A DNA stretch of 64,000 nucleotides, from NCBI RefSeq assembly GCF_056746865.1, contig NZ_CM163382.1; one strand, given 5' to 3'. The position numbers were made by a program, and so were the translations under genes. Below the pieces are notes generated by a model. It was not told the origin of the DNA, did not search any database, and was given only the letters and a program-made list of their open reading frames with translations. Positions 49,879-64,000 of the stretch are shown here, piece after piece (positions within the stretch are counted from its first letter, which is position 1; each line of letters begins with the position of its first letter).

Positions 49879-50003
49879 ATTTACTCCTTTCTAACATCAC
49901 CAGGAAAAGTATAACGGATTGAAAATACATTGTTTATAAAAACAGCAGGCGCGCGGTAATGGCTGGATTGCGACACGGAGTTACTTTATAATCCGCTACC
50001 ATG

Positions 50004-50078
50004 GCCCCTTAGCTCAGTGGTTAGAGCAGGCGACTCATAATCGCTTGGTCGTTGGTTCAAACCCAACAGGGGCCACCA
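50004..50078 (+). tRNA. ileX: tRNA-Ile (anticodon CAU; lysidine-modified Ile2 type)
   Basis: GGCCCCTTAGCTCAGTGGTTAGAGCAGGCGACTCATAATCGCTTGGTCGTTGGTTCAAACCCAACAGGGGCCACCA; cloverleaf with CAT anticodon in loop CTCATAA; encoded CCA. Confidence 0.9.
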
Positions 50079-54903: not shown

Positions 54904-55174
54904 GATTTATTCCTTATGAATGAGTTAGCGGTGTAAATGAAAAAGCCGCGTCTCCCGGAGAAGACGCGGCCTGATGGACGAAATGAATGACGTTTATTGT
55001 CTGAGAAGCCCTTCACTGGCGAGCTGCGTATTTTTATGGAAGGAGATCACCCAATAACCCCATCGGGATCGGGCAATAACCGGCCAAATTGTGAACGATT
55101 CAGATGCCATTTGGCAGCAAAAGAGCCTTCGGCAATAAACGTGATGTACAACCCGGCATATCTGTTGCTCCCTG

Positions 55175-55207
55175 AAAGTAAAAAGCCCCGGTCATTATGA
55201 CCGGGGC
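55175..55207 (-). terminator. Ag43 intrinsic terminator
   Basis: GCCCCGGTCAT-TATGACCGGGGC hairpin followed on minus strand by TTTTTACTTTC. Confidence 0.6.
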
Positions 55208-55229
55208 CTGAAGGGGAGTGACCTGATTA

Positions 55230-58076
55230 TCAGAAAGTCACATTCAGCGTGGCCTGACCGTTATAGCCTTCAGCGCTGTTGCCGCTGACACTGTGGGCAT
55301 AACCGGCCTGAACGCCCAGAGTGATATTTTCCCGGACACGGGCTTCCAGTCCGGCCTGCAGGTCCAGTGACGTGCCATTCTGTGACGGTGAGAACGTCAT
55401 GTTACTGCCGGCTTCAGCTGTACCCATGCTCATGTCACCCCGGGAGCTGAAAGTGCGGATAACAGAAGGCTGTACCCACCAGTTCACCGGCAGTTCACTC
55501 ACACGGTGTTTTGTACTGTCGCGCAGAGTGTCACGGGATGAGGTGCCTTCGCCAAAGGTCATATCGTTGTGGCTGCCCAGACGGAAGCCGGCACGCACAT
55601 GTTGTGTACTGCCATGCCCGAACTTCACATAACCGGCGTTATCCTGGCCGTCATCCAGGGAGAGCCCCTGCCAGGTGTACTGCAGTTGTGGCTCCAGCAT
55701 CAGGTTGTCAGTGATACTGAAGGGCAGACCGGTTTCCAGTGAGCCCAGCCAGCCCCAGCCCCGGGCGCGGAAGTCGTTATTGTCCGATGACGCTTTCATG
55801 CTGTGGCGGGTTCCCTGTGCCACAATGTCAGCCCACAGGCCGGAGGACGTGTGTGTCAGATTCAGGTATCCGCCCAGGCTGCCGGCATCATCCCGGACTG
55901 TGCCGGCGCGGGAACCGTCATCATCCTTAACATCAACGGAAGAATGACCTGCAGCACCATACACCCCTGTCGTCAGAGACATACCTGCAACCTCTGTTCT
56001 CAGCAGGTCACCCTCCAGACGGACGAAGCCATAGCTGCCGCTGCTTTCCGGCGTGGCTCCACGGGCAATACCGCCGTTGTTATCGTGACCGAGATGACCG
56101 CCCTGAATGCTGAGACGGACGCTGTTATTTTCACCGTTTACACCGGTCTGATGGCTGCGGGAGCCTGCCAGAATCCGGTCATAGTCCATTGCCTGTGTCA
56201 GCATGGAGGCATACAGGGGGACTTCAGCACGATAAGCATTTTCACTGCGCAGGTACCAGTCTTCATCGCTGTCACGGTTCAGGGTGTAGTTAAAGGCACC
56301 GGCCTGAAGCGGGCGACTCAGGGCAAACGCACCTTCTTCTGTGGTGGCACCATTCTGTGCATCCACAACCCGGATACCCTGTCCGGAGGTTGCCACCCCG
56401 AGGTTACTGTTTCCGACATTTGTGAACGCAAGCCAGGTTTTGCCGGTTGCCTGACCACCATTAATCACCAGCTGGTCAGAGGCATTGCTGCCATCAAGGC
56501 GAACACGCATATTGATGGTGCCACCCTGACCGGTGAGGTTACTGGTTGTCAGTTTATGGAACGTTACCGGGGCGTTGCCTTTTGCAACAGCACGGCTCAG
56601 TATGGCATCCGGTGTTGTCTGATTGTCAAAGTAAATCTCCCCTGCGTTAACAATATCGCCGGTACTGACCACATCACCATTCAGTACCATGCTGGCGCCT
56701 TTACTGAGCTGTGTTCTGCCACTCAGACTTCCCCCGGCAGCCAGCATCAGTGTTCCACGATGTCCGACAGTGGTGTTGCCAGCCTGTCCCCCGGCATTAA
56801 CCGTAAAGCTGCCGCCATTTTCCAGCAGCAGGCCGCTGGCCTGACCGGATATGCCATCAATACTGAACTTACCGCTGGCATTGGTCCCCTCAACAGTGGC
56901 ACCACTGTCTGCAATCAGGGCACCACCGGATGTCATGGTGACACCTGTCGCCTTACCACCGGCAGACACTGCCAGGGTTCCGCCGTCATCCACCCGTGTT
57001 TTCTGCGCTGAATGGCCCTCCAGTACATCCAGGCGACCGCCGGACTCCAGAACAACACCGTCAGCCTTACCGTTTTCCACCGTGAAATTCCCCAGACGGT
57101 TGCTGCCGGTGACGGTTGCCGCCGTACTGGTGACCAGTGCGCCGCCCTGCTTCAGGGTGACATTCGTGGCTGTACCACCGGCGTTCACCTGCAGTTTGCC
57201 TTTCTGGTTAACGGTGGAGAAATCCGCCAGACCACCTTCCTTGATAATCTGCCAGCCGTCACTGTTTACAACAGTGCCAGACGCCGTACCGCCGTTGTGC
57301 ACATACTGGTACCCCCCATTCAGCGTGGTATCCAGTGCGTGACCATGTACAGTCTGGTCGCCGCCGGCATAAACCACAGTGGTATTTGCCGTTCCTTCAG
57401 CAGCCACAATCTGACGACCATTTTTATTGATGGTGGTGCGTACGGCATCTCCGTAGACGGTCTGCCCGGTATCACCATTTTCTGCATCCGGTCCCCCTTC
57501 CGCGCCGGTATTCACAACCGTGTCGGTTGCCATTGCGCCGGATTTGACGGCCTGCCAGCCCTTCTCATTAATGACGGTACCCGTTGCAATCCCGCCTTCA
57601 TGTATCCACTGCTCACCGCCGTTCAGAGTGGTGTTCACTGCCTGCCCCTGAAGGCTCTGTCCGCCTCCGGCACTGATAACCGTGTCTGAAACGCTTCCTC
57701 CGGCATTCACTCTCTGAAGACCACCACCGGTGACAGTAGTGTTGTTGGCGGTACCGCCATTTTGTATCCATTGGCCGCCGGTATTCGCCTCGTTATCCGG
57801 CCCATACTCCAGCCCGGTACTGATGGTCATTCCGTTGGCCGTACCGAAGACAATCTGGTTGTCATGATTTGTCAGTGTTCCGCCGCTCACGGTTTCTCCC
57901 GCCTGTACGACCGTGTCAGCAGCCAGTACCGGGACTGACGTGACAGCAGCAAGAGACAGCGCAACCGCCACACCGGTGCGTTTTCCCCGTGAGCGCGCCA
58001 GTTCGGAAGCCACCACCAGGGTGCCCGTAATGTGATTCCATACCAGCCTGTAGCTGGTGTTCAGATGTCGTTTCAT
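55230..58076 (-). CDS. flu: Antigen 43 self-associating autotransporter adhesin (short ~950 aa variant)
   Basis: ORF trimmed to MKRHLNTSYRLVWNHITGTLVVASELARSRGKR extended signal peptide; beta-helical passenger repeats; C-terminal beta-barrel ending ...YNGQATLNVTF. Confidence 0.9.
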   Translation of the reverse strand: MKRHLNTSYRLVWNHITGTLVVASELARSRGKRTGVAVALSLAAVTSVPVLAADTVVQAGETVSGGTLTNHDNQIVFGTANGMTISTGLEYGPDNEANTGGQWIQNGGTANNTTVTGGGLQRVNAGGSVSDTVISAGGGQSLQGQAVNTTLNGGEQWIHEGGIATGTVINEKGWQAVKSGAMATDTVVNTGAEGGPDAENGDTGQTVYGDAVRTTINKNGRQIVAAEGTANTTVVYAGGDQTVHGHALDTTLNGGYQYVHNGGTASGTVVNSDGWQIIKEGGLADFSTVNQKGKLQVNAGGTATNVTLKQGGALVTSTAATVTGSNRLGNFTVENGKADGVVLESGGRLDVLEGHSAQKTRVDDGGTLAVSAGGKATGVTMTSGGALIADSGATVEGTNASGKFSIDGISGQASGLLLENGGSFTVNAGGQAGNTTVGHRGTLMLAAGGSLSGRTQLSKGASMVLNGDVVSTGDIVNAGEIYFDNQTTPDAILSRAVAKGNAPVTFHKLTTSNLTGQGGTINMRVRLDGSNASDQLVINGGQATGKTWLAFTNVGNSNLGVATSGQGIRVVDAQNGATTEEGAFALSRPLQAGAFNYTLNRDSDEDWYLRSENAYRAEVPLYASMLTQAMDYDRILAGSRSHQTGVNGENNSVRLSIQGGHLGHDNNGGIARGATPESSGSYGFVRLEGDLLRTEVAGMSLTTGVYGAAGHSSVDVKDDDGSRAGTVRDDAGSLGGYLNLTHTSSGLWADIVAQGTRHSMKASSDNNDFRARGWGWLGSLETGLPFSITDNLMLEPQLQYTWQGLSLDDGQDNAGYVKFGHGSTQHVRAGFRLGSHNDMTFGEGTSSRDTLRDSTKHRVSELPVNWWVQPSVIRTFSSRGDMSMGTAEAGSNMTFSPSQNGTSLDLQAGLEARVRENITLGVQAGYAHSVSGNSAEGYNGQATLNVTF

Positions 58077-58293
58077 CAGCTTTTCCTTACAGAGGGTGAA
58101 TAAAAAAGCCGGTACCCACAAATGTGGATACCGGCAGGTACAAAACAGCATGGTCAGATAAAGTGGTTTTTCCCGGACATAAATGCTTCCCCTCTCTCAT
58201 CCGCCAGAGAAGTATCAGTCCGTTGTGTGCAATTCCGTTCTGCATGATGAAGAGATTCAACTGCCTTTTCGCAGGCCATTAACCACTATAAAC

Positions 58294-58329
58294 GATCGAT
58301 AGTAACGATCGATACCTGTTTTATTGATC
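58294..58329. promoter_or_regulatory. Three clustered Dam GATC sites (Ag43 phase-variation switch / OxyR operator)
   Basis: GATC at 58294, 58307 and 58326 within 36 bp (AACGATCGATAGTAACGATCGATACCTGTTTTATTGATCG) ~220 bp upstream of Ag43 start. Confidence 0.7.
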
Positions 58330-58448
58330 GTTTTATTCTATTGATTGCAAGGCGGTCACGCAAGAGAAACAGGAGGATCATGAGGTGTTTGTGTCATGTT
58401 TTCAGTTGGTTAACGCAATGTAATCAGGCATTTCCCCTGGCAGACTGT

Positions 58449-59584: not shown

Positions 59585-61141
59585 ATGACAAGTATTCAAC
59601 AACGAGCAGAACTGCACCGCCAGATATGGCAAATTGCCAATGATGTCAGAGGTTCTGTTGACGGATGGGATTTTAAGCAATACGTTCTGGGCGCACTTTT
59701 CTACCGTTTTATCAGCGAAAATTTTTCCAGTTATATTGAAGCCGGTGATGACAGTATCTGTTATGCGAAACTGGATGACAGCGTAATTACTGATGACATT
59801 AAAGACGATGCCATCAAAACTAAAGGCTACTTCATCTACCCCAGTCAGCTTTTCTGCAACGTAGCGGCGAAAGCAAATACTAATGACAGGCTGAATGCAG
59901 ATTTAAACAGCATCTTCGTTGCTATCGAAAGTTCTGCTTACGGTTATCCTTCAGAAGCTGACATCAAAGGTTTGTTTGCTGATTTCGATACCACCAGTAA
60001 CCGCCTGGGTAACACCGTTAAGGATAAAAATGCCCGCCTGGCTGCGGTTCTGAAAGGGGTTGAAGGGTTAAAACTTGGTGACTTCAACGAACATCAGATT
60101 GACCTGTTCGGTGATGCCTATGAGTTCCTGATTTCTAACTATGCGGCAAATGCCGGTAAGTCAGGCGGTGAGTTCTTTACACCGCAGCACGTCTCCAGGC
60201 TGATTGCACAACTGGCTATGCACGGGCAGACCAGCGTTAACAAAATCTACGACCCGGCAGCGGGTTCCGGCTCACTGTTGTTGCAGGCGAAAAAACAGTT
60301 TGATAACCACATCATCGAAGAAGGCTTTTTCGGTCAGGAAATCAACCATACGACCTATAACCTGGCGCGTATGAACATGTTTTTGCACAACATCAACTAC
60401 GACAAGTTTGATATCAAGCTGGGTAATACACTGACTGAGCCACACTTCAGAGATGAAAAACCGTTTGATGCCATCGTTTCTAACCCGCCGTATTCGGTGA
60501 AATGGATTGGCAGCGATGACCCGACGCTGATTAACGATGAACGTTTTGCCCCGGCTGGCGTTCTGGCCCCCAAATCAAAAGCTGACTTCGCCTTTGTACT
60601 ACATGCGCTGAACTATCTTTCTGCCAAAGGTCGCGCCGCGATTGTCTGCTTCCCGGGTATTTTTTACCGTGGCGGCGCGGAGCAGAAAATCCGTCAGTAT
60701 CTGGTCGATAATAACTATGTCGAAACCGTGATTTCACTGGCACCGAACCTGTTCTTTGGCACCACCATTGCCGTCAATATTCTGGTGCTGTCTAAACATA
60801 AAACGGATACCAAAGTTCAGTTTATTGACGCCAGCGAACTGTTCAAAAAAGAGACTAATAACAACATCCTGACCGATGCTCATATCGAACAGATTATGCA
60901 GGTATTTGCCGGCAAGGAAGATGTTGCTCATCTGGCGAAATCTGTCACGTTTGAGACTGTTGTCGCGAATGACTATAACCTGTCGGTGAGCAGCTATGTG
61001 GAAGCGAAAGATAACCGCGAAGTGGTGGACATTGCTCAGCTCAACGCCGAGCTGAAATCTACTGTCGCCAGGATTGACCAGCTTCGCAGGGATATTGATG
61101 CCATCGTCGCTGAAATTGAAGGCGAGGAGCAGGAGGCATGA
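59585..61141 (+). CDS. hsdM: Type I restriction-modification methyltransferase subunit HsdM (type IC, EcoR124-like)
   Basis: 518 aa; SAM-binding DPAAGSGS and catalytic NPPY motif; overlaps hsdS by 4 nt. Confidence 0.9.
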
Positions 61142-62343
61142 GTAGCGTGAACTTCTTGGAAAAGCTGTTGGATGGCGTTGAGGTCGAGTGGAAGACACTT
61201 GGGCAAACTTGCAAAATTGAAACAGGAAAGCTTAATGCGAATGCGGCTGTTGATGATGGAGAGTATATGTTCTTCACGACAGCCAAAGAGACAAGCAAAA
61301 TTGATAAATTCCGCTGGGATACAGAGGCATTGCTGATTGCAGGCAATGCGAATGTTGGTGAGGTGAAGCATTACATCGGCAAGTTTGAGGCTTATCAGCG
61401 CACCTATGTTCTGACAAATTTCGACGAAAATGTAAGTGTTAGATTTTTGTATTTTGTGCTTAGCCATAGCCTGAAGAAATATCTCGAGGAAAGAACAAAT
61501 AGCGCGGCAATGACATATATCGTGCTATCAACCTTAGAGAATTTCCCTATCCCCATCCCCTGCCCAGGCAACCCCCAAAAATCCCTTGCCATCCAGTCTG
61601 AAATCGTTCGGATTCTGGATAAATTTACTGCACTTACCGCTGAGCTTACCGCTGAGCTTAACATGCGTAAAAAACAGTACAACTACTATCGCGACCAGTT
61701 GTTGAGTTTTAAAGAGGGTGAGGTTGAGTGGAAGACTTTGGGGGAAATTGGAGATTTTACATATGGATATGCAGCCAAAGCCATGGATTCAGGAGATGCC
61801 CGTTTCGTGAGAATTACTGACATAAATAAAGACGGGAAGCTATCGAAAGAAAACCCAATGTACGTTGAATTAAATGAGGAAAATGAGAAATATACCTTAG
61901 ACAAAAATGATTTACTCATGGCAAGAACTGGGGCAACCTTTGGTAAAACAATGATTTTTGAAGAAGATTATCCAGCAGTATACGCTGGTTTTTTAATAAA
62001 GTTGAACCTAAATAAAACGATTATTAATGCCAAATATTACTGGCACTTTGCACAAAGTGATTTTTTTTGGGAACAGGCTAATAAATTAGTATCTGGTGGT
62101 GGGCAACCACAGTTTAATGCTAATGCACTGAAACAAGTCAGAGTACCTATTCCATACCCATCTCACCCTCAAAAATCTTTAGACGAACAGGGGCGTATTG
62201 TGGATATTCTGGATAAGTTTGATGCAATCGCAGCTTCCATCACCGAAGGTCTCCCGCGTGAAATCGAGTTACGTCAAAAACAATACGAATACTATCGTGA
62301 TTTACTGCTCAGTTTCCCAAAACCTGAAACTGTCAGTAAATAA
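61138..62343 (+). CDS. hsdS: Type I R-M specificity subunit HsdS (type IC)
   Basis: 401 aa; two TRDs separated by central conserved region with TAELTAEL repeat and conserved KKQYxYYRDxLLSF blocks after each TRD. Confidence 0.85.
61627..61659 (+). repeat. Tandem 12-bp repeat (ACCGCTGAGCTT x2, preceded by partial ACTGCACTT) encoding TAEL-TAEL in hsdS
   Basis: Direct reading of hsdS codons 164-174: [11 protein letters not shown]. Confidence 0.8.
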
Positions 62344-62464
62344 TTGACCATTGCTACCGACCGGGCCTCCTTAACATCCGGTCAGTATATAGACTATTTT
62401 TTACGCGCCGGAAGTCACTCTTAACGCCCTTCCGGCTCTTGCCAGGCGGCACAAAGGATGCGCT

Positions 62465-64000
62465 ATGACTCATCAAACACACACCATTGCTGAATCCAAT
62501 AACTTTATCGTCCTTGATAAGTACATCAAAGCTGAGCAAACAAGCGACAGCTACCAGAGCGAATCGGACCTGGAACGTGAACTGATTCAGGACCTGCGGA
62601 ATCAGGGTTATGAATTTATTTCCGTAAAATCACAGTCGGCAATGCTGTCTAATGTTCGGGAACAGCTTCAGAGCCTCAATGGTGTGATGTTTAATGACAG
62701 CGAGTGGCGGCGCTTCACGGAGCAGTATCTGGACAACCCCAGCGATGGTATTCTGGATAAAACCCGTAAAATCCATATCGACTATATCTGCGACTTTATT
62801 TTTGACGACGGGCGACTTGAGAACATCTATTTGATAGATAAAAAGAATCTCATGCGCAATAAGGTGCAGATTATCCAGCAGTTTGAACAGACGGGTTCTC
62901 ATGCTAACCGTTATGACGTCACGATCCTGGTTAATGGTTTACCGCTGGTGCAAATCGAACTAAAAAAACGCGGGGTGGCGATTCGTGAGGCTTTCAACCA
63001 GATACATCGTTACAGTAAAGAGAGTTTTAACAGCGAAAATTCCCTGTTTAAGTATCTGCAACTGTTTGTCATTTCTAACGGCACCGATACCCGTTATTTT
63101 GCCAACACGACAAAGCGCGATAAAAACAGTTTTGACTTCACCATGAATTGGGCGAAATCAGACAACACGCTGATTAAAGACCTCAAAGACTTTACCGCTA
63201 CCTTTTTCCAGAAACATACTCTGCTGAATGTTCTGGTGAACTACAGCGTTTTTGACAGTAGTCAGACGCTACTGGTGATGCGACCGTACCAGATTGCCGC
63301 CACCGAGCGCATTCTGTGGAAAATTAAGAGTTCCTTTACAGCGAAGAACTGGTCAAAACCGGAAAGCGGTGGGTATATCTGGCACACTACCGGTTCTGGT
63401 AAAACCCTCACCAGCTTTAAAGCCGCGCGTCTGGCAACAGAGCTGGACTTTATTGATAAAGTCTTCTTTGTGGTCGACAGGAAAGACCTCGATTACCAGA
63501 CCATGAAGGAATATCAGCGTTTTTCGCCAGACAGCGTCAACGGCTCGGAAAATACCGCAGGCCTTAAACGAAATCTGGATAAGGACGATAACAAAATTAT
63601 CGTCACTACTATTCAGAAACTCAATAACCTGATGAAAGCAGAAAGCGACCTGCCTGTATATAATCAGCAAGTGGTGTTTATATTTGATGAATGCCACCGC
63701 AGCCAGTTTGGAGAAGCGCAGAAAAACCTGAAGAAGAAATTCAAACGCTATTATCAGTTTGGTTTTACCGGCACCCCTATTTTCCCGGAAAACGCCTTAG
63801 GCTCAGAAACAACCGCCAGCGTATTTGGCCGTGAATTGCATTCGTATGTGATTACCGATGCGATTCGTGACGAAAAAGTGCTCAAATTCAAGGTGGACTA
63901 CAACGATGTGCGGCCACAGTTTAAGTCTTTAGAGACAGAAACTGACGAGAAAAAACTGAGTGCGGCTGAAAATCAGCAGGCGTTTCTTCACCCCATGCGT
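62465..64000 (+). CDS. hsdR: Type I restriction endonuclease subunit HsdR (type IC), 5' portion only, truncated by window end
   Basis: In-frame translation [20 protein letters not shown]...; helicase motif I TGSGKT and motif II DECH; open to window end (not in ORF track because no stop). Confidence 0.9.

Follow-up and report, generated by a model that had tools for sequence, protein, structure and literature searches.

The gene at positions 55230–58076 of the window (the whole 64,000-nucleotide stretch analysed here) raises a question about antigen 43 (Ag43) proteins; namely, whether one that is clearly shorter than the Flu protein of Escherichia coli K-12 has lost part of its passenger or represents a standard form of the family with its own architecture.

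Gene and domain architecture

The ORF list places an uninterrupted reading frame of 2847 nt on the minus strand (948 aa plus a stop codon), with no frameshift or internal stop across the 948 codons. The preliminary description was nearly right in giving about 949 aa; that figure is off by one because the stop codon was counted. The protein scores 1983.2 bits against the Ag43/Cah equivalog model NF033177 (auto_Ag43; NCBIfam cut-off 1200), and the alignment runs end to end over profile positions 1–948 of 948. Four Pfam domain types were found, all above their thresholds: ESPR (PF13018, residues 6–48), AIDA repeats (PF16168, seven copies), AC_1 (PF18883, 497–599) and Autotransporter (PF03797, 673–924). 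A single polypeptide thus has the classical type Va layout of an ESPR signal peptide, a beta-helical passenger, a type 1 autochaperone and a C-terminal beta-barrel. The DNA is 100% identical to NZ_CP042969.1 700498–703344, which RefSeq labels ‘Ag43/Cah family autotransporter adhesin’. The gene and its parts are as follows.

55230–58076, minus strand: agn43/cah-type gene, 948 codons plus stop codon (55230–55232)
57921–58076, minus strand: signal peptide with ESPR extension, residues 1–52 (PF13018 at 6–48; 52-aa boundary as in Table S1 of PMC10058404; 87% identity to K-12)
57156–57920, minus strand: SL subdomain (stem), 255 aa (96.5–97.3% identity to class C6 representatives, 97.6% to UTI89)
56901–57155, minus strand: EJ subdomain (elbow), residues 308–392, type EJ2 (94–98% identity to C6 EJ2, 75% to the same K-12 columns)
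56631–56900, minus strand: BL subdomain (bottom of the L), residues 393–482, short type BL2, 90 aa (96.7% identity to C6 BL2)
56280–56630, minus strand: start of the translocation unit with autochaperone, residues 483–599, SF-II subtype (PF18883 at 497–599; 58% identity to K-12)
55233–56279, minus strand: linker and beta-barrel translocator, residues 600–948 (PF03797 at 673–924; 94–95% identity to K-12, Ag43a and Ag43b, at equal length)

On these sequence features, the gene very probably encodes an intact E. coli Antigen 43 of canonical length, a member of the Ag43/Cah family of self-associating type Va autotransporters, in SF-II, class C6 (SL1a-EJ2-BL2-AC1). AIDA-I and TibA resemble the window protein in their AIDA-type beta-helix repeats and in their type of barrel, and both give matches (NF033176, E = 2.6e-58; PDB 4Q1Q, E = 4e-32), but membership of either group was rejected because both scores lie far under the equivalog cut-off (197 versus 1200 bits for AIDA-I).

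Origin of the length difference

K-12 MG1655 Flu (b2000; NC_000913.3 2071539–2074658; class C1, SF-I) has 1039 aa, close to the figure in the preliminary description, and the window protein is indeed shorter, by 91 aa; CFT073 Ag43a and Ag43b have 1040 and 1039 aa, respectively. Pairwise alignment with K-12 Flu, Ag43a and Ag43b, which that description had proposed, gave 71% identity to K-12 Flu by BLASTP, and full-length identities of 69% to Ag43a and 68% to Ag43b (as a share of the longer sequence). Identity to the K-12 allele over its full length is therefore ruled out; the global alignment with K-12 Flu holds 777 identical residues.

The difference lies in the C-terminal passenger and the adjoining autochaperone region. 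All 91 missing residues fall in residues 393–599, and a segment comparison shows that the counterpart of this span is 298 K-12 residues, at 48–58% identity. Within BL, only 26% of the 143-aa K-12 BL1 is matched and K-12 has 128 residues over the aligned span; residues 483–599 comprise 117 residues here versus 170 in K-12. On either side the two proteins are alike, with identities of 87% in the signal peptide, 88% in SL and 95% in the last 349 residues, whereas K-12 Flu carries an EJ1-BL1-AC1E module and the window protein an EJ2-BL2-AC module. None of the K-12-type characters (EJ1-BL1-AC1E, a 143-aa BL1, 1039 aa) was found in the window protein. The signal peptide, autochaperone and barrel that had been described as conserved are all present, but the autochaperone is of the other AC subtype and is not conserved relative to K-12.

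We weighed an origin in which a K-12-type (SF-I, C1) flu lost about 91 passenger residues by internal deletion of beta-helix repeats, which would make the allele an unusual derived variant. Rung loss is possible in principle in a repeat-rich passenger, and the K-12-like stem and last 349 residues would fit such an origin. A deletion would leave near-identity in what remains, however, and the residues kept in the shortened span have the low identity given above; EJ, too, belongs to the alternative type, the EJ and BL module matches the EJ2 and BL2 representatives in the literature at 94–98% identity, 2942 of 5426 genomes have the short module, and the family profile itself has 948 positions. 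We consider this origin exceedingly improbable; the segment-by-segment identities refute it, because they show replacement and no loss. As read from these sequences, the 91-residue shortfall goes back to an ancient exchange of the EJ-BL-AC module. The exchange that distinguishes SF-II from SF-I has already been described (Ageorges 2019, 2023; Vo 2022; PMC6668479, PMC10058404, PMC8993888). BL1 exceeds BL2 by 53 aa (PMC6668479), and the bottom arm has four rungs in UTI89 and EDL933 and seven in Ag43a (PMC8993888).

Class assignment and prevalence

The subdomain lengths (SL 255, EJ 85 and BL 90, for a passenger of 430 aa, and a translocation unit of 466) fit class C6, as do identities to the C6 representatives VAEP_480.11 and VAEP_172.6 of 96.5–97.3% in SL, 94–98% in EJ and 96.7% in BL. 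Pairwise identities assign the stem to subtype SL1a, and not to SL1b (C4), SL2a (C2) or SL2b (C3): SL is 96.9% identical to a C1 representative with SL1a, 86–87% to C4 representatives, 88% to K-12, 70% to EDL933, and 67% and 63% to Ag43a and Ag43b. Class C4 of the six-class scheme was rejected because its SL1b representatives differ in rungs 4–6 and are only 86–87% identical; the label C4 that Vo 2022 gives to UTI89 belongs to an older four-class scheme (PMC8993888).

Of 5426 complete E. coli genomes, 2942 contain the short module, compared with 2380 for the long K-12 module. Class C6 (SL1a-EJ2-BL2) is reported as the most prevalent in the six-class scheme (PMC10058404), and every C4 and C6 representative examined from Table S1 has 948 aa (PMC10058404). 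Calling the allele a short-passenger variant is thus apt relative to K-12 but takes the wrong norm, as 948 aa is the standard and the commoner length.

Within class C6 as defined by Ageorges 2023 (PMC10058404), the window allele stands apart as a rare sub-allele with a small patch of private changes around residues 444–501; 8 of 4236 matching records are at least 99% identical across the gene. There is an outside chance that these private substitutions make it a rare C6 sub-variant whose behaviour differs measurably from that of UTI89 Ag43, in alpha/beta processing or aggregation kinetics. R482Y, the 444–501 patch and N64S could be the changes responsible.

Stem interface and expected aggregation

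The best match among solved structures is 7KO9, the alpha-domain of Ag43 from UPEC UTI89 (7KOH is the EDL933 structure; PMC8993888); the UTI89 locus tag is given as c1139 (Vo et al. 2022, PMC8993888). Over residues 52–613, which span the alpha-domain and AC, 544 of 562 residues are identical without gaps (96.8%), and residues 483–613 are 97.7% identical. Both proteins have the SF-II architecture. The 18 substitutions in this span include N64S, R482Y, W358Q and L361R, and could shift aggregation kinetics or processing: N64S adjoins the interface residue G13, and R482Y lies at the boundary between passenger and translocation unit drawn in Table S1 (PMC10058404). The window protein retains the whole UTI89 interface of nine residues (G13, G30, T32, N60, D79, T80, T98, N100 and N137, in alpha-domain numbering; residue list from PMC8993888).

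By analogy with UTI89, EDL933, Ag43a and K-12, the protein would be exported through Sec and its barrel inserted into the outer membrane. The passenger would fold as an L-shaped, three-stranded beta-helix with four rungs rather than seven in the bottom arm, and hydrogen bonds in the SL stem would join two passengers on adjacent cells head to tail. Given that the nine interface residues are all kept, we expect a UTI89-like phenotype, with a single interface and slow to moderate autoaggregation. According to Ageorges 2023 (PMC10058404), no C6 protein has so far been characterized; the transfer of the UTI89 data therefore rests on the comparison of SL.

EHEC EDL933 Cah (z1211; PDB 7KOH) is a class C2 protein that aggregates fast and strongly through a double interface with 24 hydrogen bonds, and similar behaviour of the window protein deserves consideration. 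The two proteins have the same 948-aa SF-II architecture and a common EJ2-BL2-AC module (88–97% identity, with BL at 96.7% and residues 483–613 at 95.4%), and the NCBI name ‘Ag43/Cah family’ covers both. The stem that bears the interface, however, is only 70% identical to that of EDL933 versus 97.6% for UTI89, the conserved residues are the UTI89 interface set, and interface and kinetics differ between the two reference proteins, UTI89 aggregating more slowly than EDL933 (PMC8993888). EDL933-like aggregation is thus very unlikely, and the UTI89-like phenotype remains our expectation. The statement that passenger differences change self-association agrees with the literature, but most of the effect is placed on the SL interface residues and not on length; by analogy, aggregation strength is expected to track the stem interface residues more than passenger length.

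Upstream region

The sequence upstream of the gene contains the elements listed below.

58294–58329, minus strand: three GATC sites (G at 58329, 58310 and 58297; −253, −234 and −221 from the ATG), presumed Dam/OxyR phase-variation switch, function by analogy to K-12
58095–58331, minus strand: agn43 leader RNA, homologue of IsrC/IS102 (Rfam RF00124 IS102, 74 bits versus a gathering threshold of 46, model positions 1–206 of 206)
58102–58135, minus strand: leader hairpin with a stem of 12 bp and a U run after it, shortly before the ribosome-binding site (RNA fold −26.1 kcal/mol, z = −3.9)
58084–58088, minus strand: Shine–Dalgarno sequence AAGGA, 7 nt before the ATG at 58076 (read from the sequence; conserved in K-12, agn43a and agn43b)

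By direct position count, the GATC sites are spaced 19 and 13 nt apart, the same as in K-12 flu, agn43a and agn43b, and the cluster is 31 nt more distant from the ATG than its K-12 counterpart. Differences from the K-12 sequence occur between and beyond the sites and in the central part of the leader; the affinity for OxyR is therefore putative here. This type of leader occurs in 3445 genomes, and the K-12 annotation places isrC directly upstream of flu. The leader hairpin, which together with the identically spaced GATC triplet is common to K-12 flu and the window gene, is nearly invariant over four aligned alleles, and none of 200 shuffles folds as well. If K-12 is a guide, expression would be phase-variable, with Dam methylation and OxyR binding competing at the three GATC sites, and the leader hairpin would cause IsrC-type premature termination. 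A separate Rfam match to Hrs1 at 55178–55247 (21 bits versus a gathering threshold of 56, E = 0.78) was treated as chance.

Genomic setting

The gene lies in a CP4-44-like island beside a tRNA, among toxin–antitoxin and anti-restriction genes. The loci of Ag43a (c3655; PDB 4KH3) and Ag43b (c1273; PDB 7KOB) of UPEC CFT073, both class C3 and SF-I, have an island context in common with the window, with a GTPase gene on the upstream side and, on the downstream side, a DUF932, antirestriction and JAB module. Their beta-domains are 94% identical to that of the window protein; their stems are of the SL2 type. In K-12, yeeR follows flu, whereas it is absent after the window gene.

Such a setting could house a silent or decaying passenger of the island, with an intact frame and no present function, and the three agn43-like places in the identical source genome would allow for redundancy. 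The complete reading frame, four domain types above Pfam thresholds, and an intact promoter-proximal GATC triplet, leader hairpin and ribosome-binding site all argue against silence, to which we give next to no probability; we retain the interpretation of an intact adhesin gene.

Antisense reading frames

Long ORFs do exist on the opposite strand, as the preliminary description observed, and we likewise judge them spurious; its remark that such frames, from the Gly/Thr-rich repeat composition, can mislead gene callers is supported.

55803–57011, plus strand: longest antisense ORF, 402 aa, judged spurious (ORF list)
57012–57689, plus strand: antisense ORF, 225 aa (ORF list)
56851–57342, plus strand: antisense ORF, 163 aa (ORF list)

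The long antisense ORFs matched no Pfam family, and RefSeq has no antisense gene annotated at the identical locus. When codon order was shuffled, the longest antisense open run was 255 ± 67 codons, and 3.2% of shuffles reached the observed 406; runs of 358 and 345 codons occur opposite K-12 flu and in rpoD. The ORFs were rejected as real genes on the lack of a Pfam family and of a RefSeq annotation, and because shuffles also give long runs, although only 3.2% give one of 406 codons.

Implications

The architecture of this allele is already known, and in that respect the finding is ordinary. For annotation, the gene should be entered as a class C6 (SF-II) adhesin of the Ag43/Cah family, without a flag for a truncated flu. 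In strain typing, the allele predicts UTI89-like, slower aggregation under phase-variable control; it could also serve as a test case for class C6. K-12 Flu, with its 1039 aa, does not set the standard length for the family, and the two lengths, 948 and about 1039 aa, correspond to two EJ-BL-AC modules, which recombine with adhesive stems of different kinds.

Length and modular composition of the adhesin

The adhesin open reading frame (55230..58076, − strand) runs through 948 codons and a stop without interruption, and Pfam assigns the following domains to the predicted protein:

Residues 6-48 (− strand gene): ESPR signal-peptide extension
Window protein: seven AIDA beta-helix repeats
Residues 497-599: type 1 autochaperone
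Residues 673-924: autotransporter beta-domain

The protein scores 1983 bits against NCBIfam NF033177 (Ag43/Cah family autotransporter adhesin; equivalog cut-off, 1200 bits). Its alignment spans profile positions 1-948 of 948, so that the Ag43/Cah family model is itself 948 aa long. Identical DNA is found in E. coli CFSAN061769 (NZ_CP042969.1), where the RefSeq name is Ag43/Cah family autotransporter adhesin. The gene is a standard, majority-type member of the family, of a previously described and already known kind.

A preliminary description had called this gene a short-passenger variant relative to K-12 Flu. The gap of 91 residues to Flu (948 vs 1039 aa; NC_000913.3) is real, and the CFT073 proteins Ag43a and Ag43b are 1040 and 1039 aa long. 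The alignment to Flu proposed there, run with BLASTP, shows 71% identity and contains 117 gap positions. We then aligned the four proteins and took identity per segment, using the stem (SL), elbow (EJ) and bottom arm (BL) of the L-shaped passenger and the autochaperone (AC) region.

Identity of the window protein to K-12 Flu, Ag43a and Ag43b by segment
Residues 1-52, signal peptide: 87%, 85%, 87%; partner span 52
Residues 53-307, SL stem: 88%, 67%, 63%; partner span 255-256
Residues 308-392, EJ elbow: 75%, 71%, 71%; partner span 85
Residues 393-482, BL bottom arm: 48%, 48%, 47%; partner span 128 (window, 90)
Residues 483-599, AC region: 58%, 59%, 58%; partner span 170 (window, 117)
Residues 600-948, last 349 residues: 95%, 94%, 94%; partner span 349

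These partner lengths place all of the missing residues (91/91) within residues 393-599. What remains of that region is strongly diverged from K-12, Ag43a and Ag43b; we therefore rejected a deletion inside the K-12 sequence in favour of a different module. The autochaperone, previously described as conserved, is present but of a subtype other than that of K-12 (58% identity over 483-599). The two lengths of Ag43 have been traced to a 53-residue difference between the longer BL1 and the shorter BL2, with SL types shuffling with two EJ-BL modules (Ageorges 2019, PMC6668479).

Prevalence and class

Among 5426 complete E. coli genomes, with presence defined as 80% or more coverage of the short module, the short module (query 56277-57059) occurs in 2942 and the corresponding long K-12 module in 2380, which makes the short form the commoner of the two. 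The length difference behind the short-passenger label stands, but the label itself is only partly supported because it takes K-12 as the norm. The particular window allele is a rare sub-variant: 99% or more identity across the gene was found in only 8 of 4236 matching records. Differences from near relatives are dispersed, apart from a small group near residues 444-501 in which the private changes relative to the nearest alleles are T444M, R482Y, V492I and D501N. R482Y (codon 482, 56631-56633) lies on the boundary that Table S1 of Ageorges 2023 (PMC10058404) sets between passenger and translocation unit; position 482 is R or H in the representatives examined there.

Six Ag43 classes have been defined, with subfamily SF-II characterized by EJ2-BL2-AC1 (Ageorges 2023, PMC10058404), and the subdomain sequences of the Table S1 representatives from that study served as our references. 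The window stem is 96.5-97.3% identical to C6 representatives and 96.9% identical to one C1 representative bearing SL1a, compared with just 86-87% to C4 (SL1b) representatives and 88% to K-12; the elbow and bottom arm are 94-98% identical to those of C6 representatives. By these subdomain identities, the allele is SL1a-EJ2-BL2-AC1, and hence class C6. According to that study, C6 makes up 36.5% of Escherichia Ag43 sequences, more than any other class, and no C6 protein has been characterized (PMC10058404). Every C4 and C6 representative examined in its Table S1 has 948 aa and a 430-aa passenger.

Long open reading frames of 402, 225 and 163 aa do exist on the antisense (+) strand, as had been noted from the sequence. 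The longest antisense stop-free run is 406 codons; codon-order shuffles of the gene give a maximum run of 255 ± 67 codons and reach at least 406 in 3.2% of cases, and the runs in K-12 flu and rpoD are 358 and 345 codons. No Pfam family matches any of the three frames, and none is annotated by RefSeq at the identical locus. With long runs arising in shuffles too, their earlier reading as spurious by-products of composition is reasonable.

Genomic setting and regulatory region

The adhesin gene is in a CP4-44-like island, with these features:

50003-50078, + strand: tRNA with anticodon CAT at the island edge (tRNA-Met by ARAGORN; tRNA-Ile in RefSeq at the identical locus)
59585-64000, + strand: type I restriction-modification operon, adjoining the island GTPase gene
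59585-61141, + strand: hsdM
From 61138, + strand: hsdS
Past the window end, + strand: hsdR, incomplete

A GTPase-family gene and then the restriction-modification operon lie on the promoter-proximal side (higher coordinates); in the identical genome, an IS5-like element and a truncated permease gene come after the operon. Past the stop codon (lower coordinates) are DUF932, antirestriction, RadC/JAB, DUF987 and CbtA/YeeU toxin-antitoxin genes. No yeeR homologue is found beyond the adhesin stop codon (54904-55229), whereas yeeR is present after flu in K-12; a 326-nt spacer leads from the stop directly to the DUF932, antirestriction and RadC/JAB genes. The same kind of gene module surrounds CFT073 agn43a and agn43b. 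There are three agn43-like places in NZ_CP042969.1, the genome with the identical allele; the window copy thus probably belongs to a set of several paralogues, possibly of different classes.

Three GATC sites precede the gene at −253, −234 and −221 from the ATG, with a spacing (19 + 13 nt) shared by K-12 flu, agn43a and agn43b; in K-12 flu the cluster is 31 nt nearer to the start codon. Another GATC, at −303 (58376-58379, − strand), sits 50 nt farther from the gene than this triplet; K-12 lacks it, and agn43a and agn43b each have one extra GATC elsewhere. The region upstream of the gene also carries the leader:

58095..58331, − strand: IS102-type agn43 leader (Rfam RF00124, 74 bits, full model covered)

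K-12 has an annotated sRNA, isrC, upstream of flu, and we equate RF00124 (IS102) with it. In its middle portion the leader differs for the most part from K-12. Most complete E. coli genomes (3445/5426) carry this leader type, whereas K-12 W3110 matches it over its last 64 nt only. Immediately upstream of the ribosome-binding site is a 12-bp hairpin with a U run after it. The hairpin hardly varies across the four alleles aligned, and its fold is much more stable than those of shuffled sequences (z = −3.9). By analogy with the K-12 system, expression of the window gene may be phase variable via Dam/OxyR at the GATC sites, and transcripts may terminate prematurely in the leader.

RefSeq starts the gene at ATG 58076 at the identical locus, and an AAGGA Shine-Dalgarno precedes this codon in the sequence. 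A longest-ORF listing prolongs the frame to an in-frame ATG at 58151 (973 aa), and the 25 extra codons (58077-58151, − strand) cross the conserved leader hairpin and ribosome-binding site. A longest-ORF gene caller would mis-start the gene at ATG 58151.

Predicted structure and aggregation

The best match among solved structures is 7KO9 (544/562 residues identical), the alpha-domain of Ag43 from uropathogenic UTI89; 7KOH is Cah from EDL933 (Vo 2022, PMC8993888). UTI89 Ag43 was labelled class C4 in that study. Its stem (window residues 53-307 span) is identical to C6 representatives at 249-250 of 255 positions and to C4 representatives at 220-221. On this criterion 7KO9 would count as a C6-type structure, although Ageorges 2023 regards C6 as uncharacterized.

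The alpha-domain of Ag43a exceeds those of UTI89 and EDL933 by 69 residues and has seven rungs in its bottom beta-helix, against four in the other two (Vo 2022, PMC8993888). UTI89 has a single trans-interface, with hydrogen-bonding residues G13, G30, T32, N60, D79, T80, T98, N100 and N137 (alpha numbering, preprotein numbering minus 52), and seven glycine substitutions at this interface abolished aggregation (PMC8993888). All of these residues (9/9) are identical in the window protein; the nearest substitution relative to UTI89 is N64S, at alpha position 12. UTI89 Ag43 sediments more slowly and forms looser aggregates, whereas EDL933 Cah and Ag43a aggregate fast (Vo 2022, PMC8993888). The window passenger is predicted to form an L-shaped beta-helix with four rungs in its bottom arm, which would pair head-to-tail with the passenger of a neighbouring cell via one interface. 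The expected outcome would be UTI89-like slower sedimentation and looser aggregates, unlike those of EDL933 Cah or Ag43a.
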